A stretch of 45,305 nt of DNA from a virus, in IMG/VR virus record IMGVR_UViG_3300045988_023147; one strand, written 5' to 3'. Shown piece after piece: positions 5,045-45,305 of this stretch; the stretch's first letter is position 1, and each line of letters begins with the position of its first letter. The translations under genes and the position numbers were made by a program. The notes beneath the pieces were generated by a model. That model made no database searches, was not told the origin of the DNA, and was given only the letters and a program-made list of their open reading frames with translations.

Positions 5045-6301
5045 TTATGCACTGTGCCCCCTTCTCATGGACAATGGACTGGTTGCGTATCTGAGAGAAT
5101 CTATCCAATGATCGTTGCCATCTGGATAATCTGCAATCACTTCTCCATTGCTATCTACTTCATGCTCATAATTGATAATTTCCTTGTATGCTCTCGGTGT
5201 TCTTGCTGGATCAATAACCAGTGTTCGACATTGCAGCCACTCAAATGTATATTTACGGCTACCTGGAGTGACTATTGCTCTACGCGCTGGAAGCCCCGCA
5301 TCCCGAAAGTCAATAATGCTTTCTTCTTCATCAACTCCGCAAGAGATTGAGTAATCATCATATCCTTTTTTCTTTATCTGATTAGCCATTTCCTTGTTTC
5401 TTATCTTGGAACCTCCAAGCTCGTCTAATAAAAAAACTTTTTCCTGATTAGGAACATAAGCTACACGAAGAAATGCTTTAGGATCTGGATACCACCCCCA
5501 GTCCTGACCCTGGTAGATGCTTTGAAAGCTCTGAATCTCTTCATCTGTAATTTCTCGAATTTCTAACAGTTCGAAAATATTTGTGCCAAGTCCAACAGGA
5601 AGACCAAGATATTCATGGTCGTAAGCTCTCTGATTTGTCTTTCTCAAATGCTCCGCATCATCAATAAATTGCTGTCCAAGCCATTCAACAGGAACTGATC
5701 TATAATCGCTCTTGTGCCTGTAACTGTCAGTTCTTGGCTCTTCTACGTACACGTTCGCCCAGTTGCTTCGGCTGATCGGTGGATTAAATGTCTTAAATAC
5801 TTCAAATTTGCTTCCACCACGAAGTACAGACTGTTGGACTGTACGGATTTCTTCAATTCCGGCAAACTCATCAAGCTCCTCAAACCAAAGGTACTTGAAA
5901 TATCCTTTTTTTACTTTTATGGACTTTGTTTTCTTAGCTTTATCCAGTCCTCTGAATATGATCTTTTGTCCTGTTGGCTTATACACATATTGCATAGGAC
6001 TTAAACTGTCAGCCCACAAATCACTTACTCCAAGCGCATCAATCCCCCATGCGATCTGTTCATACACAGATTCTCTGAGCGTATTACCGACTTTCCGAAA
6101 GATTACAGCATTTGACATTAAGCCGTTCTCCGCATCCTGCATCATCTGAAACGGAATCATGCTGCCTACAAAAGATGATTTTGTAGATCCGCGTCCGCCA
6201 TACAGATCATAGTAAGTGTGTTTACCATCTAAAATATCCCAAAACACATCGTAAAATGCCGGTGCTACAATCTCATTCAGTTTGATAGCATTACTTTCCA
6301 T
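5045..6301 (-). CDS. terL: Terminase large subunit (PBSX/Terminase_3-6 type)
   Basis: Walker A LYGGRGSTKSSF, 418 aa, C-terminal nuclease-like acidic motifs. Overlaps terS by 11 nt. Confidence 0.9.
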   Translation of the reverse strand: MESNAIKLNEIVAPAFYDVFWDILDGKHTYYDLYGGRGSTKSSFVGSMIPFQMMQDAENGLMSNAVIFRKVGNTLRESVYEQIAWGIDALGVSDLWADSLSPMQYVYKPTGQKIIFRGLDKAKKTKSIKVKKGYFKYLWFEELDEFAGIEEIRTVQQSVLRGGSKFEVFKTFNPPISRSNWANVYVEEPRTDSYRHKSDYRSVPVEWLGQQFIDDAEHLRKTNQRAYDHEYLGLPVGLGTNIFELLEIREITDEEIQSFQSIYQGQDWGWYPDPKAFLRVAYVPNQEKVFLLDELGGSKIRNKEMANQIKKKGYDDYSISCGVDEEESIIDFRDAGLPARRAIVTPGSRKYTFEWLQCRTLVIDPARTPRAYKEIINYEHEVDSNGEVIADYPDGNDHWIDSLRYATSPLSMRRGHSA

Positions 6302-6743
6302 CCTGTTTCTCCGGTCTTGGAATATTATTCACAATCATAATCTTTCCATCTCCAGAATCATCATTTTTCTTGTCAGCATCCCATCCCTTAAAATTATTTC
6401 TCAAGCTGAACTGAGCGCCATTTGAACCGTCACGATCAAATAGCCTTTCCTCTGCGTACTGTTCTACCATACTCTTCGCGCGCGTTATCGTGTTACAAAA
6501 TTCCTCTTTTCCTTGGTATCTTAATAAATCCAATCTGCTTGTAAATCCTAATGCGAGAGCTAAACCAGTTACTGTTGGAGGCTTTCGATTAATAACCACC
6601 GGATTTCCAAATTTATTCAATACAGTTTTTCCATTATCATCTTTTAATATTTCACCTTCGCATTCTTTGAAATAGGTGTCAATTTTTTCTTCAATTTCGT
6701 TCACCGTCTTATATATTGGTGGTCTTCCTACCTGTTTTCCCAC
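6291..6743 (-). CDS. terS: Terminase small subunit (HTH type)
   Basis: GTG start at 6743 with GGAGG RBS 7 nt upstream. GRPPIYKTVNEIEEKIDTYF and PTVTGLALALGF are typical terS HTH signatures. Confidence 0.75.
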   Translation of the reverse strand: MGKQVGRPPIYKTVNEIEEKIDTYFKECEGEILKDDNGKTVLNKFGNPVVINRKPPTVTGLALALGFTSRLDLLRYQGKEEFCNTITRAKSMVEQYAEERLFDRDGSNGAQFSLRNNFKGWDADKKNDDSGDGKIMIVNNIPRPEKQDGK

Positions 6744-6755
6744 GTTCTCACCTCC

Positions 6756-6818
6756 AAACAAAAACTGCCATATATGGCATATAGTCATAGATATATACTA
6801 TATTACCATACATGGCAG
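6756..6818 (-). terminator. Large intrinsic terminator in the terS leader
   Basis: 13-bp arms 6806-6818/6765-6777; the single mismatch is a G-U only in the minus-sense RNA. Inner 6-bp stem TATAGT/ACTATA. Followed by UUUUUGUUU abutting the terS RBS. Confidence 0.65.
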
Positions 6819-6838
6819 AAAAATTTGTCCCCACATTT
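6797..6838 (-). promoter_or_regulatory. Late promoter 1: conserved box AAATGTGGGGACAA, 22-nt spacer, TATAGT
   Basis: Box at 6825-6838 and -10 at 6797-6802 (minus sense). The same box and the same 22-nt spacing recur at 43310-43351. The -10 lies inside the terminator loop. Confidence 0.55.
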
Positions 6839-6855
6839 TAATATTAATTGTAGTA

Positions 6856-7155
6856 TTATATTTCTCTTAGTTTTCTTAAAGTATCATAAAACATAGCCAT
6901 TGCCTTGCGCTTGTATGCATAGAAATCATCTCGCTTTGCCGGTATGTATTTTGTCTTCATGATACGGTCATAGGATTTGTTTGTTACAATAGATTCGTAC
7001 ACCAAAAGTTCAATCCCTGGCGGGCAAGAGCTTATGCAGCAGTGTAAAATATCGTGTCTCTGCTCTGGTGTAGCTTTCTGGCATATATCCTTTAAGCGGT
7101 TAATGTCCTCTGGATATACACCAAAATCAACAAGTGACTTTTGCCTGGTTCGCAT
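6856..7155 (-). CDS. Putative late-gene activator (RinA/ArpU-like, sigma r4-like C-terminus), 99 aa
   Basis: Last gene before the terS leader. C-terminal AKRDDFYAYKRKAMAMFYDTL matches the xxFYRxKRKAxxxF ending of ArpU/RinA-type regulators. Confidence 0.5.
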   Translation of the reverse strand: MRTRQKSLVDFGVYPEDINRLKDICQKATPEQRHDILHCCISSCPPGIELLVYESIVTNKSYDRIMKTKYIPAKRDDFYAYKRKAMAMFYDTLRKLREI

Positions 7156-13374: not shown

Positions 13375-15276
13375 TCAATCAAACACAATATCGTCCGTAA
13401 TCTCAAAATTATCATTGCAATTCACGAATCCTTTCGGAATTTCATTTACAATTTTCAAGAACACACATTTGGTGACAATTCCGTCAAGTTTTTTTGCCTT
13501 GGTCGGATAACCTCTGCTGTCGGTTTCCACAAGTCCCTTCTTAACAGCCCATGACAAAAATGCTTTTCTGGAGAATCTTCCTATTTTGCATAAATCATCA
13601 AACGCTGCGCTATAAATTATTGCAGTTGACGTTTTTTCTACCGGGTCATTGTCAATAATTCCCCATCTTTCTGTCTTTATATCCGGGTTATCATCGAATT
13701 TAATTCCGTTCATGGCAATCTTATCAAGCACGAACCAGTAAGCGCGTTCGTTTTCAGATACCATTTCTTTCTCTGTCAGAAGATTCTTAGCCGTCTCAAT
13801 GTCAATGTACTGGCCATCATGAAACAGCTGATCTGTTGCGATTTTATCTGCTGCCAGGATAATGCTCATTGATATGCTTTGCTTCTGCATCTTGTCATCG
13901 TCCTGTATAAGGCTCTGAAAATGCTTCTGCATGGCTTTTATATCGTCAATGGACATTTCCTTAACTACATTTACAAAATCAATTCCTGCGTAGCCGTAGT
14001 TCTTTTTAAGGGTATCTGCGGTAAGCTGTGGATCATCAAATATCTTTTCAGAGCACTCAACCTCAATAATTCGGTTAATCGCTCCGCCCTGGCTGACATA
14101 CCCGGCCAGTGGACGTTCACCGTTAGTAAGGATACAATTCTGCCAGCGATTCTCCCGGTTAACACCCAGTTCCTTGTTGGAACGGCTCTTTCCTTTTCCA
14201 GAACACAGGTCATATACAATTCCTTCGAAGTTGTCCCTGATCTTGGCAGATACTTTGGAAGTATCATCCAGAATTAGTGGAAGATTGTTAAGCATATCGG
14301 ACTTTGCTTCCAGGGCCACATCGGTTGTTTTAAAATCTCCTATGTATCTGGATTCGCCAGGGTTCGCCCAGACAGAAGCTCCTAGCATAAGTGTTACAGT
14401 CTTACCACCCTCGGTTTCGCCCCATAAGTCCACAAAGAATGGAAGAGCACCGACCAGTTTAATCAGAATACTGGCGAAGCTTGCAGCTAGCATGATTTTC
14501 GGTTCGATTCTTCCAGTAGCACGAACCTTTTTTACATGTTCATACCACTCTGTTCTGCTGCCACTTACACTGATACTTTCATACAGTTGCCGAAACCTCA
14601 TATCTCCATCGAATACAATGTCCTTGTCGTAGGGAAGAAAATAATCCCTGATCCACCCGATTTTACTGGAAGAATACTGAATATTAATGTAATCGTCATT
14701 TGCATTCTCGACATCTGACAGATACCGCACAAGAAACTTCGCATTCTCAGAAGTCACTGAAATACCAAGCGCTGATAAACCAACAATTTTACTGGCTGAT
14801 GCAACCATGGTTTTTGGAACAATAACCTCGGACCATTTATTATTCCTCTTATAGATTAACTTTATCTGTTCTTCCCCAGTCTCCAGATTCTTCATTCGTT
14901 CGATTGGAAGAATAGGGTGATAACAAGCTATAATGTCCGGCGATCCTGGATTTGTATTTGAAATCCTGATTCCCTCATCATCTGCCATCCAGTTAAGACA
15001 TTTCATCCGGTCATATTCGCAATCAGAGAAATTTGTCCATTGATTTAATGCGGATACAGGTTTCTCTTGCTTTTCTTTCTCAATGATCTGCCTATGTACT
15101 TTTGTGTAGACTTTCAACAGATCCTCAAATTTCTTCTTTACTCCAAGCTCCTTTGCCCTGTCCAGAAGCGTCAATGTTAAACGTGCCTTGTAAATCTCAT
15201 CTTCTTGCTTGAATATCTCATTAAACACTTCTTCTTCCAGAATTGATTCTGATGTGAGCTTGTTAATCTGTTCCAT
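13375..15276 (-). CDS. SF3 primase-helicase-type replication protein (VirE/DUF927/D5-like), 633 aa
   Basis: Walker A GETEGGKT and Walker B LPLILDD in the centre. Size and position next to the iterons and the CHC2 gene. Confidence 0.7.
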   Translation of the reverse strand: MEQINKLTSESILEEEVFNEIFKQEDEIYKARLTLTLLDRAKELGVKKKFEDLLKVYTKVHRQIIEKEKQEKPVSALNQWTNFSDCEYDRMKCLNWMADDEGIRISNTNPGSPDIIACYHPILPIERMKNLETGEEQIKLIYKRNNKWSEVIVPKTMVASASKIVGLSALGISVTSENAKFLVRYLSDVENANDDYINIQYSSSKIGWIRDYFLPYDKDIVFDGDMRFRQLYESISVSGSRTEWYEHVKKVRATGRIEPKIMLAASFASILIKLVGALPFFVDLWGETEGGKTVTLMLGASVWANPGESRYIGDFKTTDVALEAKSDMLNNLPLILDDTSKVSAKIRDNFEGIVYDLCSGKGKSRSNKELGVNRENRWQNCILTNGERPLAGYVSQGGAINRIIEVECSEKIFDDPQLTADTLKKNYGYAGIDFVNVVKEMSIDDIKAMQKHFQSLIQDDDKMQKQSISMSIILAADKIATDQLFHDGQYIDIETAKNLLTEKEMVSENERAYWFVLDKIAMNGIKFDDNPDIKTERWGIIDNDPVEKTSTAIIYSAAFDDLCKIGRFSRKAFLSWAVKKGLVETDSRGYPTKAKKLDGIVTKCVFLKIVNEIPKGFVNCNDNFEITDDIVFD

Positions 15277-15773: not shown

Positions 15774-16267
15774 GTCAGTAACTCCACGATTCGCCGTCCA
15801 GTCTCTTCTTTTGTACAGAATTCAAATCGGACGCCGTATTTATCTCTGATCGTGCAAAGAGATTTGTACAACTGGCAACCATCAACAGCCTTGTCCGATA
15901 TTACAGTCTTAACCTTTTTACCGTTTACTGTCTTCCAGATAACTTTGTGCTTTCTTGGATTCTCCCAGAAATACACGTCACCTACACTCTTGATATCTGA
16001 CCCATGTTCGCAAAGAATAATTAGCTGTATACCTGCTTCACGGGCCCTGATAAGCTCTGCCTTGAATCTTTCGTGTTGCTGGCAGACATTTCCACATAGC
16101 TCTTGTAAATCCTTTTTGCGGTCAATACAGAGCTTTGCATTGTCCAGCGATTGATAATCACCGCAATACAGTTTCGAGCGAAAATACTGCACTCCAAGGC
16201 TATCAAACTGACTCTGAATCCGTTCCCATTCTGATTTATGTTCCCTTGTGTCCACTTGTATAACCAT
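15770..16267 (-). CDS. ERCC4/Mus81-like structure-specific nuclease
   Basis: VDTREH ... GDYQ ... IDRKKDLQELCGN matches the ERCC4 GDY / ERK-type motifs. Confidence 0.6.
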   Translation of the reverse strand: MVIQVDTREHKSEWERIQSQFDSLGVQYFRSKLYCGDYQSLDNAKLCIDRKKDLQELCGNVCQQHERFKAELIRAREAGIQLIILCEHGSDIKSVGDVYFWENPRKHKVIWKTVNGKKVKTVISDKAVDGCQLYKSLCTIRDKYGVRFEFCTKEETGRRIVELLT

Positions 16268-16282
16268 TAAAAACACATCCTT

Positions 16283-16906
16283 TTAATTAAATGGAAGTTC
16301 TTCGTCAATTCCATCTGGAATACTCATAAAGTCTGTACCTGCCGGATTCGCCCCCATGATAGCTTCTTCTTTCAGATGATCGTCATAGGCCCTTGTGGTA
16401 CGTTCTTTTGGAATATCAGCATCATTTATTCCTTCAATACTACGGAATCGGGCGAGTTTGTGACGATTAATTTCTCTGTTATCGTACCAGTCTTTTTCAA
16501 CCCCAAAGACACCGCCGATCAGTTTACTCTTGAACTGCTGCCCGAAATTGTCACCCCATTTAACGGAAAATCCAGGGTTGGATTTTTCCACGCAAGTAAT
16601 AAAAGTCTTGAGATTGCGAACGCCATAATCAACGTTTTCATCAATAATCATATAGTTAGTACCGGCATTCGGATATTTCTTGTCTGGACGAATATCGTTC
16701 TCAAACTGCTTCATAAAGTAACCTGCCTGCTCGTCACCGTCGGCAAAATCAAACAGAATAACGAGCATATTTTTAGTTTTTCCCTCATCGTCTGGTTTTG
16801 ACTGACGCTCTGACACCTGCTTAATTACCATCTTGTGACCGCCGAGCTTAATTGGTTCAAATTCTCCTGCTGCCTGTGTTGTATCATAACTATTTGGTTT
16901 CTGCAT
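16283..16906 (-). CDS. DUF669-like protein (putative ssDNA-binding partner of the Sak4-like ATPase)
   Basis: GEFEPIKLGGHKMVIKQV N-terminus and position immediately after an AAA_24-type ATPase. Confidence 0.5.
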   Translation of the reverse strand: MQKPNSYDTTQAAGEFEPIKLGGHKMVIKQVSERQSKPDDEGKTKNMLVILFDFADGDEQAGYFMKQFENDIRPDKKYPNAGTNYMIIDENVDYGVRNLKTFITCVEKSNPGFSVKWGDNFGQQFKSKLIGGVFGVEKDWYDNREINRHKLARFRSIEGINDADIPKERTTRAYDDHLKEEAIMGANPAGTDFMSIPDGIDEELPFN

Positions 16907-18820: not shown

Positions 18821-18849
18821 TTGATATTTAGCGGACAGAGGATTATAAT
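18821..18849 (+). promoter_or_regulatory. Near-consensus plus-strand promoter antisense to the early operon
   Basis: TTGATA (18821-18826), 17-nt spacer, TATAAT (18844-18849). The -10/+1 region shares TTATAATATAACCGTA with the promoter at 27575-27603. Confidence 0.5.
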
Positions 18850-18923
18850 ATAACCGTATCCACTAAGTGATGGTTAGTGGGTTCATTGCTCTGGGTTGGA
18901 GATCCACCTCCGCCCGGGGCACT

Positions 18924-27574: not shown

Positions 27575-27603
27575 TTCACAAAGGGAAGGTACTATGTTAT
27601 AAT
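27575..27603 (+). promoter_or_regulatory. Strong plus-strand promoter inside the AbrB-recombinase intergenic region
   Basis: TTCACA (27575-27580), 17-nt spacer, extended -10 TGtTATAAT (27595-27603). Confidence 0.6.
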
Positions 27604-27609
27604 ATAACC

Positions 27610-27673
27610 GTACCCTTTGTGGTGCTTGGAGTTGGACTTTTTGTTTGGTAGACTGGGAGTCCAGCTCCTTTTT
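27610..27673 (+). ncRNA. Candidate ~65-nt antisense sRNA (promoter-to-terminator unit) opposite the AbrB-like/recombinase intercistronic mRNA
   Basis: Predicted +1 near 27610. 11-bp terminator stem 27628-27638/27658-27668 whose single non-WC pair is a G-U only in the plus sense, followed by UUUUU (27669-27673). No plus-strand ORF. Confidence 0.45.
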
Positions 27674-41005: not shown

Positions 41006-42169
41006 TCATTTTGCTGTTACAGTCGCATGCCCAGCACTAAGTGCCTTATAGGTGCTGTCACATTCAACCACTGTGATCACCTGTCCTGTTGCTGCGGTAA
41101 TGTCAGATTCGCCATCCCACGCGCTCCAGTTCTTCACATTCTGCCCGTAGTCTACGGCTGTCTCAGAAGATGCGACTTTGTACTTATATACATTTCCTGC
41201 GCTTACTTTTTCCGGAGTAACAGTCACTTTTGTATCTCCGCTCTTACTTCCTGCTGCAGAGTTTACGGTGAGGGTTCCAAGTGTCTGTGTTGTGTTGATG
41301 GTTCCAACGGCAATAGCGTCAATGTACTCTGCAAAAAGTGTAAGTCCCATGATTGCGAATGCTTCTGACACTGCTGTGTGGTAGTTGCCCTGTGTATGGA
41401 ATCCGATCAGATTTGTCTCTCCAGATACAGTGTATACAAGGCCTGCTCTTGCAAAGTCAGATTCATTCGGGTCTACATAGTACAAAACGATATTCTCAAC
41501 AGGTGTTGCGATAACTGTTCCTCTTGGAATTTCGCTGTCAGATAACAGGAAAATTGTATTAAATCCCAGGAAGTCTTTCATATACTGGAAGCCGAACTGG
41601 TTCTGAATAGTGATATCAGCTGCACCGATATACTCATACACATCCAGGATGTTCACAAATCCAACAACGCCAGTCACATTTCTGTGCATCTGCTTGAATT
41701 TGTTTTCTACCCGCCCTTTCGCCATTGCTAAAGCCATCTGGAAAGTAGTCTCAGTAAATGAGAGAGTACCTGTTTTCAGATATTTATAAAATCTTTCAGT
41801 TACGTTGGTCTGAAGCTGGAAAAGGAATTCGTCATCAGTCATCTGAACAGCGTTCTCATAACCGTGATCCTTGATTGCTTCGATAGATACAGCCTTTGCA
41901 TATTTCTCAATAGTCATCTCTGCATAAGGCTTTTCTTTTACAACGAATTTGCTGTAAGGGATTTCCTCACCCTCACCAACGTTTCCATTCTCTAATGTAC
42001 CTTCTGCATATTTGGATTTGAGAACTGCTCCAGGTGTCTTTTTGATTGGACGCATGATACCCAGGATTTCACGTAAGTGCTCCCAGTTTCTTTCGAATCT
42101 GGTGACGAAATCAATCTCACGCGCAGTCACCTGAATATCAGCAGATGTGATAAGTCTTTCTTTTGCCAT
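41006..42169 (-). CDS. Major capsid protein (HK97 fold) with C-terminal Ig-like domain
   Basis: ATG 42169 (GAAAGGA RBS). Follows the scaffold gene. C-terminal ~90 aa (TLTVNSAAGSKSGDTKVTVTPEKV...) looks Big_2/Ig-like. Confidence 0.8.
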   Translation of the reverse strand: MAKERLITSADIQVTAREIDFVTRFERNWEHLREILGIMRPIKKTPGAVLKSKYAEGTLENGNVGEGEEIPYSKFVVKEKPYAEMTIEKYAKAVSIEAIKDHGYENAVQMTDDEFLFQLQTNVTERFYKYLKTGTLSFTETTFQMALAMAKGRVENKFKQMHRNVTGVVGFVNILDVYEYIGAADITIQNQFGFQYMKDFLGFNTIFLLSDSEIPRGTVIATPVENIVLYYVDPNESDFARAGLVYTVSGETNLIGFHTQGNYHTAVSEAFAIMGLTLFAEYIDAIAVGTINTTQTLGTLTVNSAAGSKSGDTKVTVTPEKVSAGNVYKYKVASSETAVDYGQNVKNWSAWDGESDITAATGQVITVVECDSTYKALSAGHATVTAK

Positions 42170-42212
42170 TAAAAAATCCTTTCTACCCATAATTGTTAAG
42201 GTATTGGGTCAG

Positions 42213-42236
42213 CGGCTATACTCTGGTGTATAGTCG
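42213..42236. promoter_or_regulatory. Imperfect palindrome upstream of the major capsid gene (related to 37788-37812)
   Basis: CGGCTATAC-N6-GTATAGTCG followed by GTTA, as at the tail-gene copy. Confidence 0.4.
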
Positions 42237-42246
42237 GTTATAAAAA

Positions 42247-42879
42247 TCACTGGAATAACTGGATGTTCTGGGCAATTGCAGCCTGTCTTTCGGACGGGTC
42301 TTTAATTGCTTCAATTTCCTTTCTGGTCATGGTTCCCGGTGTCTGTTGCTGTCCAACATGTGTGGTAAATCTTGCCTGATTTTGCTGAGCCTGCTGCTGG
42401 GAATCATCTACAAAAGCAGAAGCATCAGACTGTTTCATCTGTTCAATCAGGTCATTCAGTCCAAGGATTTTACCGTCTTTCAGCTTCAATCCTGCTTCCT
42501 TGATATCTGCCATTACGGATTTCTTTGCCGCTTCACTGGAAAACTTAACATCTTCGAGTGCTGCTTTGAGTGCATCTAAAAAATCACGATCGTAGATTTT
42601 TGCATTGTACTCTTTTTCAGCATCTTCCGCTTTCTGCTTCCAGGTTTCTAACTCAGTTTTTACATTTGCCGGGTCGATACCATCAAAGCCCTTTAATGTC
42701 TCCTCTGCTGTCTCAGCACGTTCTTTCCAGTTGTCGCGCTCTCCCTCGACTTTTGACAGAGTTTTTTCAACTTCTTTTGCATTCTTATAATGCTCGGAGA
42801 GTGCTTTCTTCACATCTGCCTTTTTGTCTTCCGGAATTTCGATTCCAAATGATTTTAATGTGTCAATAAGTTTCTGCAT
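42247..42879 (-). CDS. Scaffolding protein (Phage_GP20-like)
   Basis: ATG 42879 with AGGAGGA RBS. Helical, K/E-rich. Directly upstream of the capsid gene. The N-terminal part of the track ORF overlaps the tRNA flank. Confidence 0.7.
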   Translation of the reverse strand: MQKLIDTLKSFGIEIPEDKKADVKKALSEHYKNAKEVEKTLSKVEGERDNWKERAETAEETLKGFDGIDPANVKTELETWKQKAEDAEKEYNAKIYDRDFLDALKAALEDVKFSSEAAKKSVMADIKEAGLKLKDGKILGLNDLIEQMKQSDASAFVDDSQQQAQQNQARFTTHVGQQQTPGTMTRKEIEAIKDPSERQAAIAQNIQLFQ

Positions 42880-42957
42880 ATATATCCTCCTGGTCGTGTT
42901 TATTGACCTGCCGCCGCAGGTAAATGGATTAAGCCAGTTAGACCACTGGCAAGGTAA

Positions 42958-43031
42958 TTGGAAAGGCAGGACTCGAACCTGCGGCGTCAAGGACTATGCG
43001 TCCTCCGCTCTTCCAACTGAGCTACATTCCA
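42958..43031 (-). tRNA. Phage tRNA with CAU at the anticodon position but a non-canonical anticodon loop (CGCAUAG, G at position 33) and a 6-nt variable region
   Basis: Hand-folded cloverleaf: acceptor TGGAATG/CTTTCCA (one T-T mismatch), D arm GCTC-AGTTGGAA-GAGC, anticodon stem GAGGA/TCCTT, T arm GCAGG-TTCGAGT-CCTGC. U8, A14, G18G19 and T54T55C56 present. No encoded CCA. Confidence 0.7.
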
Positions 43032-43309
43032 TTAACCCGGATTCCCGGGTTAGCAAGGTATTTATCGTGTTATGCCTGCCACTATCCGACTTTCGCGGAA
43101 ATTTTGTTTAATTTACGAGGAGGTGTTACCACCAGTCACGATGGTAAATGAATGTGCCGGAAATTGCATCCGCTTTTCAACCTCCAGATTCCGCTCGAAT
43201 CTGTTTCTATTAAGGGCACATCCACAAAAAAGAAAGGAGGACATGAAATGTAAAAGAAAGCAAAAACTTTTAATCAGCAGTCCCTACAAGGTTCACCACG
43301 CCTTGCAAG
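43032..43309 (-). other. ORF-free structured leader between late promoter 2 and the tRNA
   Basis: No credible ORF on either strand. Hairpins at 43033-43052 (8 bp, abutting the tRNA 5' end) and 43189-43207 (CAGATT/AATCTG). Long-range GGAGGT/ACCTCC pairing at 43119-43124/43180-43185. Confidence 0.4.
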
Positions 43310-43351
43310 ATTATAATATCACATTCTTTTAAAAAAGTTGTCCCCACATTT
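43310..43351 (-). promoter_or_regulatory. Late promoter 2: conserved box AAATGTGGGGACAA, 22-nt spacer, TATAAT
   Basis: Box at 43338-43351 and -10 at 43310-43315 (minus sense). Identical box and spacing at 6797-6838. Confidence 0.55.
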
Positions 43352-43358
43352 GCAAGAA

Positions 43359-43922
43359 TCAAAGCATATTTCTCAGTTTTTCAACGTATCTTTTAACAAG
43401 ATCACGTTCCTCCCGGCACTCTGCATCCTTAGACATATCACTCATTTCTGTGGTAAGCTCATCCAGGTGTTCTTCCAGTGCTGCAAGCATTTTTCTTTTG
43501 CACTCTTCAGATTTACCGGAGCGATAACTCTGCTTCTGCGTCATGTAGTCGTTATATGTGTCTCTTCCATCAGATCGAATGTAGCTTCCTCTTGCGGATC
43601 CATAGTTATGATTTCCATCATCGTAAGAGCTGCCACGATCATAATCCGGGTACATCATCCTTCCATCACCACGACTGTATCTCCCCATGCTATCGCGTTT
43701 TCTTCCGCGTTCGCTGTAATCATCATTGTATCCGCCTCGCATCTCATCAAGGACAGCGTTGTAATACTCCACCTTTTTATCCCAGTACTGGGTATTCTTG
43801 ATATCTTTGTACATATCAATGAGCTTATAAGTCATTTCCAGATTTCCGGTGGTCAGCCCGCTGTCTGCGATTTTTGAAAGCTCGTCCTCTATTCTTGTGC
43901 ATAAATCCTTAATATCTCTCAT
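43359..43922 (-). CDS. Protein with helical ends and a central R/D/Y/G/S-rich low-complexity region (187 aa)
   Basis: AGGAGG RBS. Centre GGYNDDYSERGRKRDSMGRYSRGDGRMMYPDYDRGSSYDDGNHNYGSARGSYIRSDGRDTYNDY. Confidence 0.65.
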   Translation of the reverse strand: MRDIKDLCTRIEDELSKIADSGLTTGNLEMTYKLIDMYKDIKNTQYWDKKVEYYNAVLDEMRGGYNDDYSERGRKRDSMGRYSRGDGRMMYPDYDRGSSYDDGNHNYGSARGSYIRSDGRDTYNDYMTQKQSYRSGKSEECKRKMLAALEEHLDELTTEMSDMSKDAECREERDLVKRYVEKLRNML

Positions 43923-45250: not shown

Positions 45251-45305
45251 ATCTCCTTTTTGTGTATTTACATCAATCTGGCCAGATTGTAATGTACTAT
45301 TTCAT
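45251..45305. repeat. Terminal direct repeat, right copy (identical to 1-55)
   Basis: Exact 55/55 identity with the left end. Confidence 0.97.

Follow-up and report, generated by a model that had tools for sequence, protein, structure and literature searches.

Late-gene activators set the time at which temperate phages package their DNA, and hence the time at which host genes are transduced. To our knowledge, there is essentially nothing described on the late-gene activators of gut Clostridia. The closest described systems belong to the Ltr superfamily (RinA, ArpU, LtrA, LtrB, and LtrC), whose members are late activators of Gram-positive phages and act at terS promoters (PMC3753634, PMC3152322). 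In the staphylococcal, enterococcal, and streptococcal phages from which this paradigm comes, the activator gene is located just upstream of terS (PMC3753634, PMC3152322). The recognition sequence consists of two to four 7-nt direct repeats and is found immediately after the activator stop codon (PMC3753634). Missing read-through revealed a terminator between this gene and terS, a mosaic boundary comes just after the binding block, and the specificity differs by lineage (PMC3753634, PMC3152322). Phage 80alpha has a single late promoter, and the site from which RinA acts is more than 155 bp upstream of the start (PMC3753634, PMC3152322).

Here, we describe a locus of similar layout in the window, which means the whole 45,305-nucleotide stretch of viral DNA analysed in this study. 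As in the Ltr systems, the gene of a small (99-aa) protein at the end of the early region is the last before terS, which is followed by terL and the portal gene. A predicted terminator (6818–6756) lies between the 99-aa gene and terS. A lineage-specific box, which is the putative binding site, is placed immediately past the stop codon of the candidate activator gene or overlaps it in most lineages examined. The gene and the site form one inherited block with a mosaic junction just downstream, again as in the Ltr systems.

Results and discussion

Overall organization of the genome

The window is a circularly assembled genome of a temperate siphophage with a length of ~45.25 kb (~45,250 bp); circular assembly follows from its ends, which are identical over 55 nt (bases 1–55 = 45251–45305). 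Nearly all genes are carried by the minus strand. In the order of that strand, a long early/replication block is followed by the 99-aa ORF, terS, terL, and the gene of an SPP1-type portal, and then by two minor capsid genes and several small ORFs including one for a 68-aa protein similar to sigma region 4 (sigma-r4). Past the circular junction, there are three ORFs of unknown function, and then the tRNA-Met, scaffold, capsid, and tail genes. The coordinates of the relevant features are listed in Table 1. The closest relatives are uncultured human-gut phages, MT835739 (85–89% identity) and Dulem virus 35 (~73–75%). Homologs of the 99-aa protein were found in prophages of Lachnospiraceae (e.g., Marvinbryantia, Eisenbergiella, Anaerostipes, Mediterraneibacter, Lachnoclostridium, and Acetatifactor).

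Elsewhere in the window, a 16-nt exact repeat, TACGGTTATATTATAA (minus-strand reading), was observed at 18843–18858 and 27597–27612. Both copies are intergenic and upstream of minus-strand genes, with upstream flanks that are loosely alike. They may represent another promoter or operator class, for example that of middle or lysis genes.

Table 1 Features of the two putative late promoters and their surroundings in the window.
Feature	Coordinates	Strand	Remarks
99-aa ORF	6856–7155	minus	Last gene before the packaging module; candidate late activator, new family
Box 1, AAATGTGGGGACAA	6825–6838	minus	Exact match; between 99-aa ORF and terS
Hairpin, 21 pairs	6765–6818	minus	Encloses the −10 and the predicted start; −28.4 kcal/mol, z = −6.9
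Extended −10 of terS promoter, TATGgTAATAT	6800–6810	minus	Hexamer TAATAT 6805–6800; predicted start near 6793
Hexamer TATAGT of the earlier note	6797–6802	minus	3-nt overlap with the extended −10
U-tract, TTTTTGTTT	6756–6764	minus	Directly 3′ of the hairpin; run of at least 5 T kept in all window-lineage variants, L185, and L229
terS	6291–6755	minus	RBS GGAGGTG (6755–6749), likely GTG start 6743; PF16677 GP3_package, E = 1.9e-17
68-aa sigma region-4-like HTH protein	820–1026	minus	Sub-threshold matches to Sigma70_r4 and ECF sigma models
Box 2, AAATGTGGGGACAA	43338–43351	minus	Exact match; upstream of the RAGATH-21 RNA/tRNA-Met/scaffold/capsid block
Extended −10 of second promoter, TGTGaTATTAT	43313–43323	minus	Predicted start near 43306
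Hexamer TATAAT of the earlier note	43315–43310	minus	Overlaps the extended −10
Small hairpin, (U)GCAAGG-N9-CCUUGU(A)	43285–43307	minus	Located where the second transcript is predicted to begin
RAGATH-21 RNA	43149–43224	minus	Rfam RF03097; in the leader of the predicted second late transcript
tRNA-Met (CAU)	42958–43031	minus	ARAGORN and Rfam
Scaffold ORF (42247–42990) and capsid gene (41006–42190)	41006–42990	minus	PF06810 Phage_scaffold, E = 9.5e-23

Two putative promoters with a common box

An earlier note on this DNA had reported that a 14-nt box occurs exactly twice in the window, each time 22 nt from a −10-like hexamer and without a −35. All three statements held. AAATGTGGGGACAA matches only the two positions given in Table 1, both on the minus strand; base-by-base reading gave 22 nt from the box to TATAGT and to TATAAT; and no TTGACA-like hexamer is present 16–18 nt upstream of either of them, where the best −35 match is 2/6 (a GGGACA located 20 nt upstream is not conserved). 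Both copies of the box fall between genes, have the orientation of the coding strand, and keep one and the same distance to a −10. Box 2 starts 8 nt past the stop of ORF 43359–43922 and lies ~8.8 kb downstream of box 1, across the circular junction. The box is a single one in the window, with no direct repeats within it, and the T-run 3′ of it is not conserved outside the window lineage. A search of the window for a third box-dependent promoter (intergenic, at most 2 mismatches, and with a −10) found none, the match at 16561 having a poor hexamer.

The exact 14-nt repeat was dropped as evidence in its own right, because 14-mers repeat often in the window: it contains a further 25 maximal direct repeats of 14 nt or more, and from Markov shuffles one would expect ~11 14-mers to be repeated. 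As the repeat alone is not beyond chance, its significance has to come from its context and from relatives. A scan of IMG/VR for the exact box found ~60 related contigs, each with terS or capsid context and several with both, and lineage-specific variants were found in diverged relatives. In seven phage lineages, a lineage-specific variant is common to the terS-type site and the second site within the genome (Table 2). The family-wide core of the box is AAAtGTG, which is followed by a variable part.

Table 2 Box variants at the two sites in seven phage lineages.
Lineage	terS-type site	Second site	Remarks
Window	AAATGTGGGGACAA	AAATGTGGGGACAA	
Dulem virus 35	AAAGGTGTATACAAAAA	AAAGGTGTATACAAAAA	terS-type site directly after the 99-aa homolog; second site upstream of scaffold
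L229	ATGTGCATACAAA	ATGTGCATACAAA	Second site between minor capsid protein 2 and scaffold genes
MT835973	AAAGGGGTACGC	AAGGGTACGCC	Near-identical
L196	AAAGTGGGGGACGGAT	AAATGTGGGGATGGAT	Near-identical
L214	AAATGTGATGA	AAATGTGCGGA	Near-identical
L222	AAATGTGCTGG	AAATGTGCGGA	Near-identical

The pairs were compared with composition-matched shuffled boxes, for which a match meant that a second site was found whose −10 had the correct spacing. None of 300–1000 shuffled boxes matched for the exact pairs (window, Dulem virus 35, and L229). The two-mismatch pairs are individually weak (8–17% of shuffles match), and their positions and spacing agree with those of the exact pairs. In relatives retrieved via the protein rather than the box, box 2 is invariant while the 5 nt between the preceding stop and the box, and also several spacer positions after it, vary. 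Box 1 is likewise invariant in relatives with differing terS modules; the 99-aa gene, the box, and the −10 stay joined, and three different terS modules follow downstream. The box at the terS-type site of L202 and L185 is not common to their second promoter, and second-site searches in L198–L208 and L202 gave no shared box. The second promoter of L185 has TTGATA-17-TATTAT in place of the box. MT835516 (L128) was uninformative: it has a 68-aa homolog, but a 99-aa homolog could not be detected and a shared box was not clearly recognisable. With the comparative data included, the box pair is well beyond chance as judged from the sequences, and the comparison supports its assignment as a cis-element of two putative promoters that lack a −35 and look activator-dependent.

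In L185 at ~16150–16400, a terminator comes after the 68-aa homolog. It is followed by a canonical promoter, TTGATA-17-TGTGaTATTAT, instead of one with a box, and then by two tandem repeats of ~110 nt that look structured (GTCGCT...GGGTTGAAAYATTAG).

The hexamers TATAGT and TATAAT had been taken as the −10 elements. They are present at the reported spacing from the box, but the register that is common to the lineages favours an extended −10, TRTGnTAnnAT, located 3 nt upstream. All diverged lineages have an unambiguous TG-extended −10 (e.g., TGgTAAAAT, TGaTAAAAT, and TGaTACAAT) at a distance of 22±1 nt from the 11-mer aligned with AAATGTGGGGA, and the spacer sequence varies. In the window, the distance from the 14-mer to the extended −10 is 19 nt, and the element lies 3 nt upstream of the hexamer first proposed. 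Because the upstream register is conserved in all relatives, where the other position is not −10-like, the extended element is more likely to be the functional −10; both hexamers could be used in the window lineage. On the capsid side, the stem of the small hairpin begins at the start predicted from the upstream register (~43306), and this register therefore fits better there as well. By eye, variants of this hairpin replace a G·U pair with A-U or G-C. At both sites in the window, TG is present one base upstream of TAnnnT, as in sigma-A-type extended −10 elements. Thus, of the two promoter types that had been considered, an activator-dependent one agrees with the lack of a −35, but an alternative sigma factor is not favoured, since the −10 is sigma-A-like with a TG extension.

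Leader of the predicted second transcript

The match to RAGATH-21 downstream of box 2 is full length (model positions 1–76), scoring 93.3 bits, where the gathering score is 70.3. In Dulem virus 35, the core motifs of this RNA, CCTTAATAGAAA ... GGTTGAAAAGCGGATGCAATTTCCGG, are also found in the corresponding position. Literature searches on RAGATH-21 gave nothing relevant. The longest scaffold ORF starts with TTG and extends into the 3′ part of the tRNA-Met gene. As the Pfam match does not begin until residue 45, the true scaffold start is probably further downstream. No terminator was found downstream of box 2.

A putative promoter enclosed by a predicted hairpin

The hairpin reported upstream of terS and followed by UUUUUGUUU is real. 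It consists of 13–14 outer and 7 inner pairs, and 0 of 200 shuffles folded as well as the read-through RNA. RNA beginning at the predicted start inside the hairpin folds no better than shuffled sequence. The predicted structure has the stable stem-loop and the U-tract of an intrinsic terminator, and its stem is longer and more AT-rich than usual, which is atypical. The −10 had been placed in the loop; TATAGT, however, forms part of the inner stem and not of a free loop. The terS RBS of the window is outside the stem.

Across 18 distinct variants, the hairpin is 98% paired (slid-partner controls, 16–50%). Seven pairs change one-sidedly from U-A to U·G, a pairing that is limited to the sense RNA. 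Fully compensatory changes are seen in two pairs, both of them from L185, where CTGCCCGGTATGG pairs with CCATATCGGGCAG. There is hardly any variation in the 5′ arm, which is inherited together with the −10, the box, and the 99-aa gene. The 3′ arm varies with the three terS modules; in the window-lineage variants it is always complementary and always followed by at least 5 T. Complementarity has therefore been kept across the mosaic junction. The nesting of the terS promoter in a terminator-like hairpin, as proposed earlier, thus agrees with a conserved and covarying structure, and transcripts starting there would omit the 5′ arm. The literature was also searched for promoters located in the loop of a terminator; nothing relevant was found, and a precedent may exist.

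Pairing of the sequences upstream and downstream of the −10 was also compared among 15 lineages. A duplex enclosing the −10 with a z of −2.3 or lower was found at the terS-type sites of 6–7 of the 15, and at none of six capsid-type sites. The T-run 3′ of the hairpin is restricted to the window lineage, L185, and L229. In L197, L202, L214, L217, and L222, the hairpin encloses the −10 and no T-run follows, so that termination cannot be the universal role of the enclosing hairpins. In L197 (~1359–1470), CACCACTTCTC, which lies between the box and the −10, can pair with the Shine-Dalgarno region of terS, GAGAGGTGGTG. In L214 and L217, the 3′ arm extends right up to the RBS. The pairing in L197 suggests a translational version of the same logic, in which the RBS would be masked only in read-through RNA.

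The 3′ arm in the window is itself a small palindrome, UGCCA-UAUA-UGGCA (6766–6779, minus strand), just before the U-tract. This palindrome is not conserved in relatives with other 3′ arms. Late transcripts might form a weak 5-bp hairpin from the 3′ arm, and some of them might still terminate there.

Candidate activator proteins

The 99-aa protein represents a family whose profile is matched by ~340 clusters at 50% identity. No match was found in Pfam at E values up to 1, either for the protein or for 64 family members, or in NCBIfam at E values up to 5, and there was no sequence match in PDB. The models of RinA, ArpU, LtrA (Sigma70_r4), LtrB (DUF1492), and LtrC gave no significant match to the protein. 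In PHROGs, it showed a weak match to a PHROG of unknown function. The AF2 model has a five-helix fold with a pLDDT of 92. A Foldseek search of this model against PDB found no fold match (best E = 2), and the fold matches in BFVD were uncharacterised viral (Siphoviridae) proteins only. A recognisable DNA-binding domain was thus found neither by the sequence searches nor by the fold searches. An hhalign comparison of the 99-aa family with the 68-aa sigma-r4-like family gave a probability of 2.7%, i.e. the two profiles are unrelated. The description of the 99-aa protein as sigma-r4-like in the earlier note is therefore not tenable. A split sigma factor, with the 99-aa protein as region 2 and the 68-aa protein as region 4, was considered and rejected (for sigma-E region 2, Foldseek E above 2 and TM ~0.25).

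The same note had also pointed to the 99-aa gene, directly upstream, as a candidate for the factor, and its linkage to the box across lineages makes it the best candidate. In most lineages examined, the box begins 0–18 nt past the stop codon of the 99-aa gene or overlaps the stop, and the gene and the box are inherited together. All loci were collected via the 99-aa protein, and its presence is therefore not an independent observation. By its position and linkage, which are the sole grounds for this assignment, the 99-aa protein is most likely the activator that reads the box. In L005 (MT835739.1), the closest complete relative, a second and only partial version of the protein is encoded at 13848–14027, ~3.5 kb into the early region; this diverged paralog shows 37% identity over 60 aa, and the window has none.

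The second candidate activator named earlier was the 68-aa protein. It is sigma-r4-like, with scores below the thresholds: 16.2 bits against a cut-off of 24.1 for PF04545, and 22.6 against 42.9 for TIGR02937. Its comparison with the PHROG sigma-factor families gave E = 2e-6, and the sources of its homologs call them "ECF sigma factor" or UPF0251. The protein is conserved in the window lineage, Dulem virus 35, L196, and L202. No homolog was found within 10 kb downstream in L214, L222, L229, and L234, all of which keep the promoter type, and the second box is kept in L214, L222, and L229 without a nearby homolog. It is a plausible HTH protein of the sigma-r4/UPF0251 type, but as the factor it is disfavoured by the lack of a homolog within 10 kb downstream in four lineages, and the 68-aa protein is unlikely to be the one that reads the box.

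Proposed mechanism

From the sequences, we infer each of promoter activity, the start site, the box-binding protein, and termination. On balance, we lean towards the reading that the two boxes are sites of one phage-encoded late activator, likely the 99-aa protein, and that the terS promoter is nested in a terminator. Since the 99-aa gene is the last before the packaging module, its product should be made ahead of the need for late genes. The activator would recruit host sigma-A RNA polymerase to extended −10 (TRTGnTAnnAT) promoters that lack a −35. The predicted position of the box relative to the start is −45 to −32, which is the position used by class-II-type phage activators. The promoter at box 1 would drive terS, terL, the portal gene, and the genes downstream, and that at box 2 would boost the RAGATH-21 RNA and the tRNA-Met, scaffold, and capsid genes. 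Polymerase coming from the upstream operon would transcribe both arms and the U-tract and would terminate. Polymerase from the box-dependent promoter would start inside the hairpin (~6793), transcribe the 3′ arm only, and read into terS.

A broader reading is possible, and we put it forward with more reserve. A structurally new family of ~100-aa proteins that has no recognisable DNA-binding fold and is confined to Lachnospiraceae prophages may supply the late master activator of these phages, with each variant reading a box of its own that begins at or within its stop codon. The terS promoter would then lie inside the terminator of the preceding operon, and the start site alone would decide between termination and read-through, with no antiterminator; sister lineages would put this arrangement to another use, the masking of the terS RBS in read-through RNA.

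Other explanations were weighed against the proposed activator. The abundance of other repeats in the window would allow AAATGTGGGGACAA to be a chance match or the functionless relic of a duplication. This is extremely improbable: the two copies share an intergenic setting, the coding strand, and the distance to a −10, the pattern recurs with different boxes in seven lineages, and the box does not vary where its flanks do. A different reader of the box could be the 68-aa protein, acting alone as a −35-replacing module or paired with the 99-aa protein. No other protein near the late genes has a recognisable DNA-binding fold, the 68-aa protein is conserved in four lineages including that of the window, and proven late activators of the LtrA family are also sigma-r4-like (PMC3753634). 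We nevertheless regard this as quite unlikely, because its gene is part of the late operon and comes after both the terS promoter and the terminator, so that a late start would need leakage. In addition, the lineages with no homolog within 10 kb include three that keep the second box, and there is no profile similarity to the 99-aa family.

The hairpin itself could be used in other ways. Antitermination of the lambda Q type would call for a constitutive promoter further upstream and for a box at which a factor is loaded onto polymerase (or which serves as an RNA site), and the modified polymerase would then pass the hairpin. The factor gene directly upstream and the terminator ahead of the late genes do resemble the arrangement of Q, PR′, and tR′. 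RinA also acts more than 155 bp upstream of the start, which according to its authors is hard to explain by simple activation (PMC3152322). This mechanism is very improbable here, as no conserved promoter was found upstream of the box (a TATAAT at the 99-aa stop codon is missing in Dulem virus 35 and other lineages), box 2 is not followed by a terminator, and the TG-extended −10 is conserved at a fixed distance and, at terS, inside the hairpin. It is unlikely, in turn, that the enclosing hairpin mainly blocks terS translation or marks read-through RNA for processing, with the U-tract being secondary. Such a role would suit the several lineages in which no T-run follows the enclosing hairpin, the pairing of CACCACTTCTC with the Shine-Dalgarno sequence in L197, and the 3′ arms that end at the RBS in L214 and L217. 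Against it, the T-run is strictly kept across terS modules in the window lineage, L185, and L229, and the RBS of the window is outside the stem. The core logic would be the same as in our reading with a nested promoter, in that the structure would form only in read-through RNA.

Comparison with known systems

Several activators and promoters of other phages and bacteria share single elements with this locus. Mor and C of phage Mu are small activators that bind just upstream of and overlapping the −35 position of promoters without a −35, and they work with the host primary sigma factor. They act as dimers on dyad-symmetric sites and have a known HTH fold. The promoter type here is similar, but a clear dyad is missing from the box, and no HTH can be recognised in the protein. 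At the middle promoters of phage T4, which depend on MotA and AsiA, a phage-specific box takes the place of the −35 and is paired with a sigma-70-type −10 that is often TG-extended; the MotA box is centred near −30, and AsiA is needed to remodel sigma region 4. The combination of a box and a −10 is again similar, whereas the box here is further upstream and no AsiA-like partner is known.

In phage lambda, the Q gene is directly upstream of the late promoter PR′, and the terminator tR′ downstream of the start is overcome by modified polymerase. In a Q-type arrangement the promoter is thus upstream of the terminator, but the conserved −10 in the present locus is inside the hairpin, as is the predicted start, and escape would need no modification of polymerase. 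In E. coli pyrC, a single promoter has alternative starts that are a few bases apart, and the choice between them governs a translational hairpin. The RNA structure would depend on the start in both cases; here, the choice between the upstream operon and the nested promoter would decide whether the terminator forms.

If the proposed mechanism is right, the locus provides a candidate family of activators with a defined putative operator, and its natural specificity variants would allow tests of protein–site recognition. The compact part of ~85 nt that combines a predicted terminator and a promoter could act as an insulator in Firmicutes. The locus also gives a predicted promoter for the RAGATH-21 RNA, which would place this RNA in the leader of the scaffold/capsid transcript.

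The differences from the Ltr systems concern the protein, the site, and the promoter. The 99-aa family matches none of the five Ltr families by sequence or fold. The site is a single box of 11–14 nt, in contrast to the two to four 7-nt direct repeats of the Ltr systems; a tandem pair, ACGTGGKGA, was found only in L186 and L209. The box adjoins the −10, unlike the distant RinA site. Phage 80alpha has one late promoter, whereas here a second box-dependent promoter is predicted inside the head module. Moreover, the putative terS promoter is nested within the terminator, unlike in the Ltr systems. As far as can be judged from sequence, the layout would thus be that of the RinA/Ltr paradigm, and what appears to be new is the protein family and the nesting of promoter and terminator.
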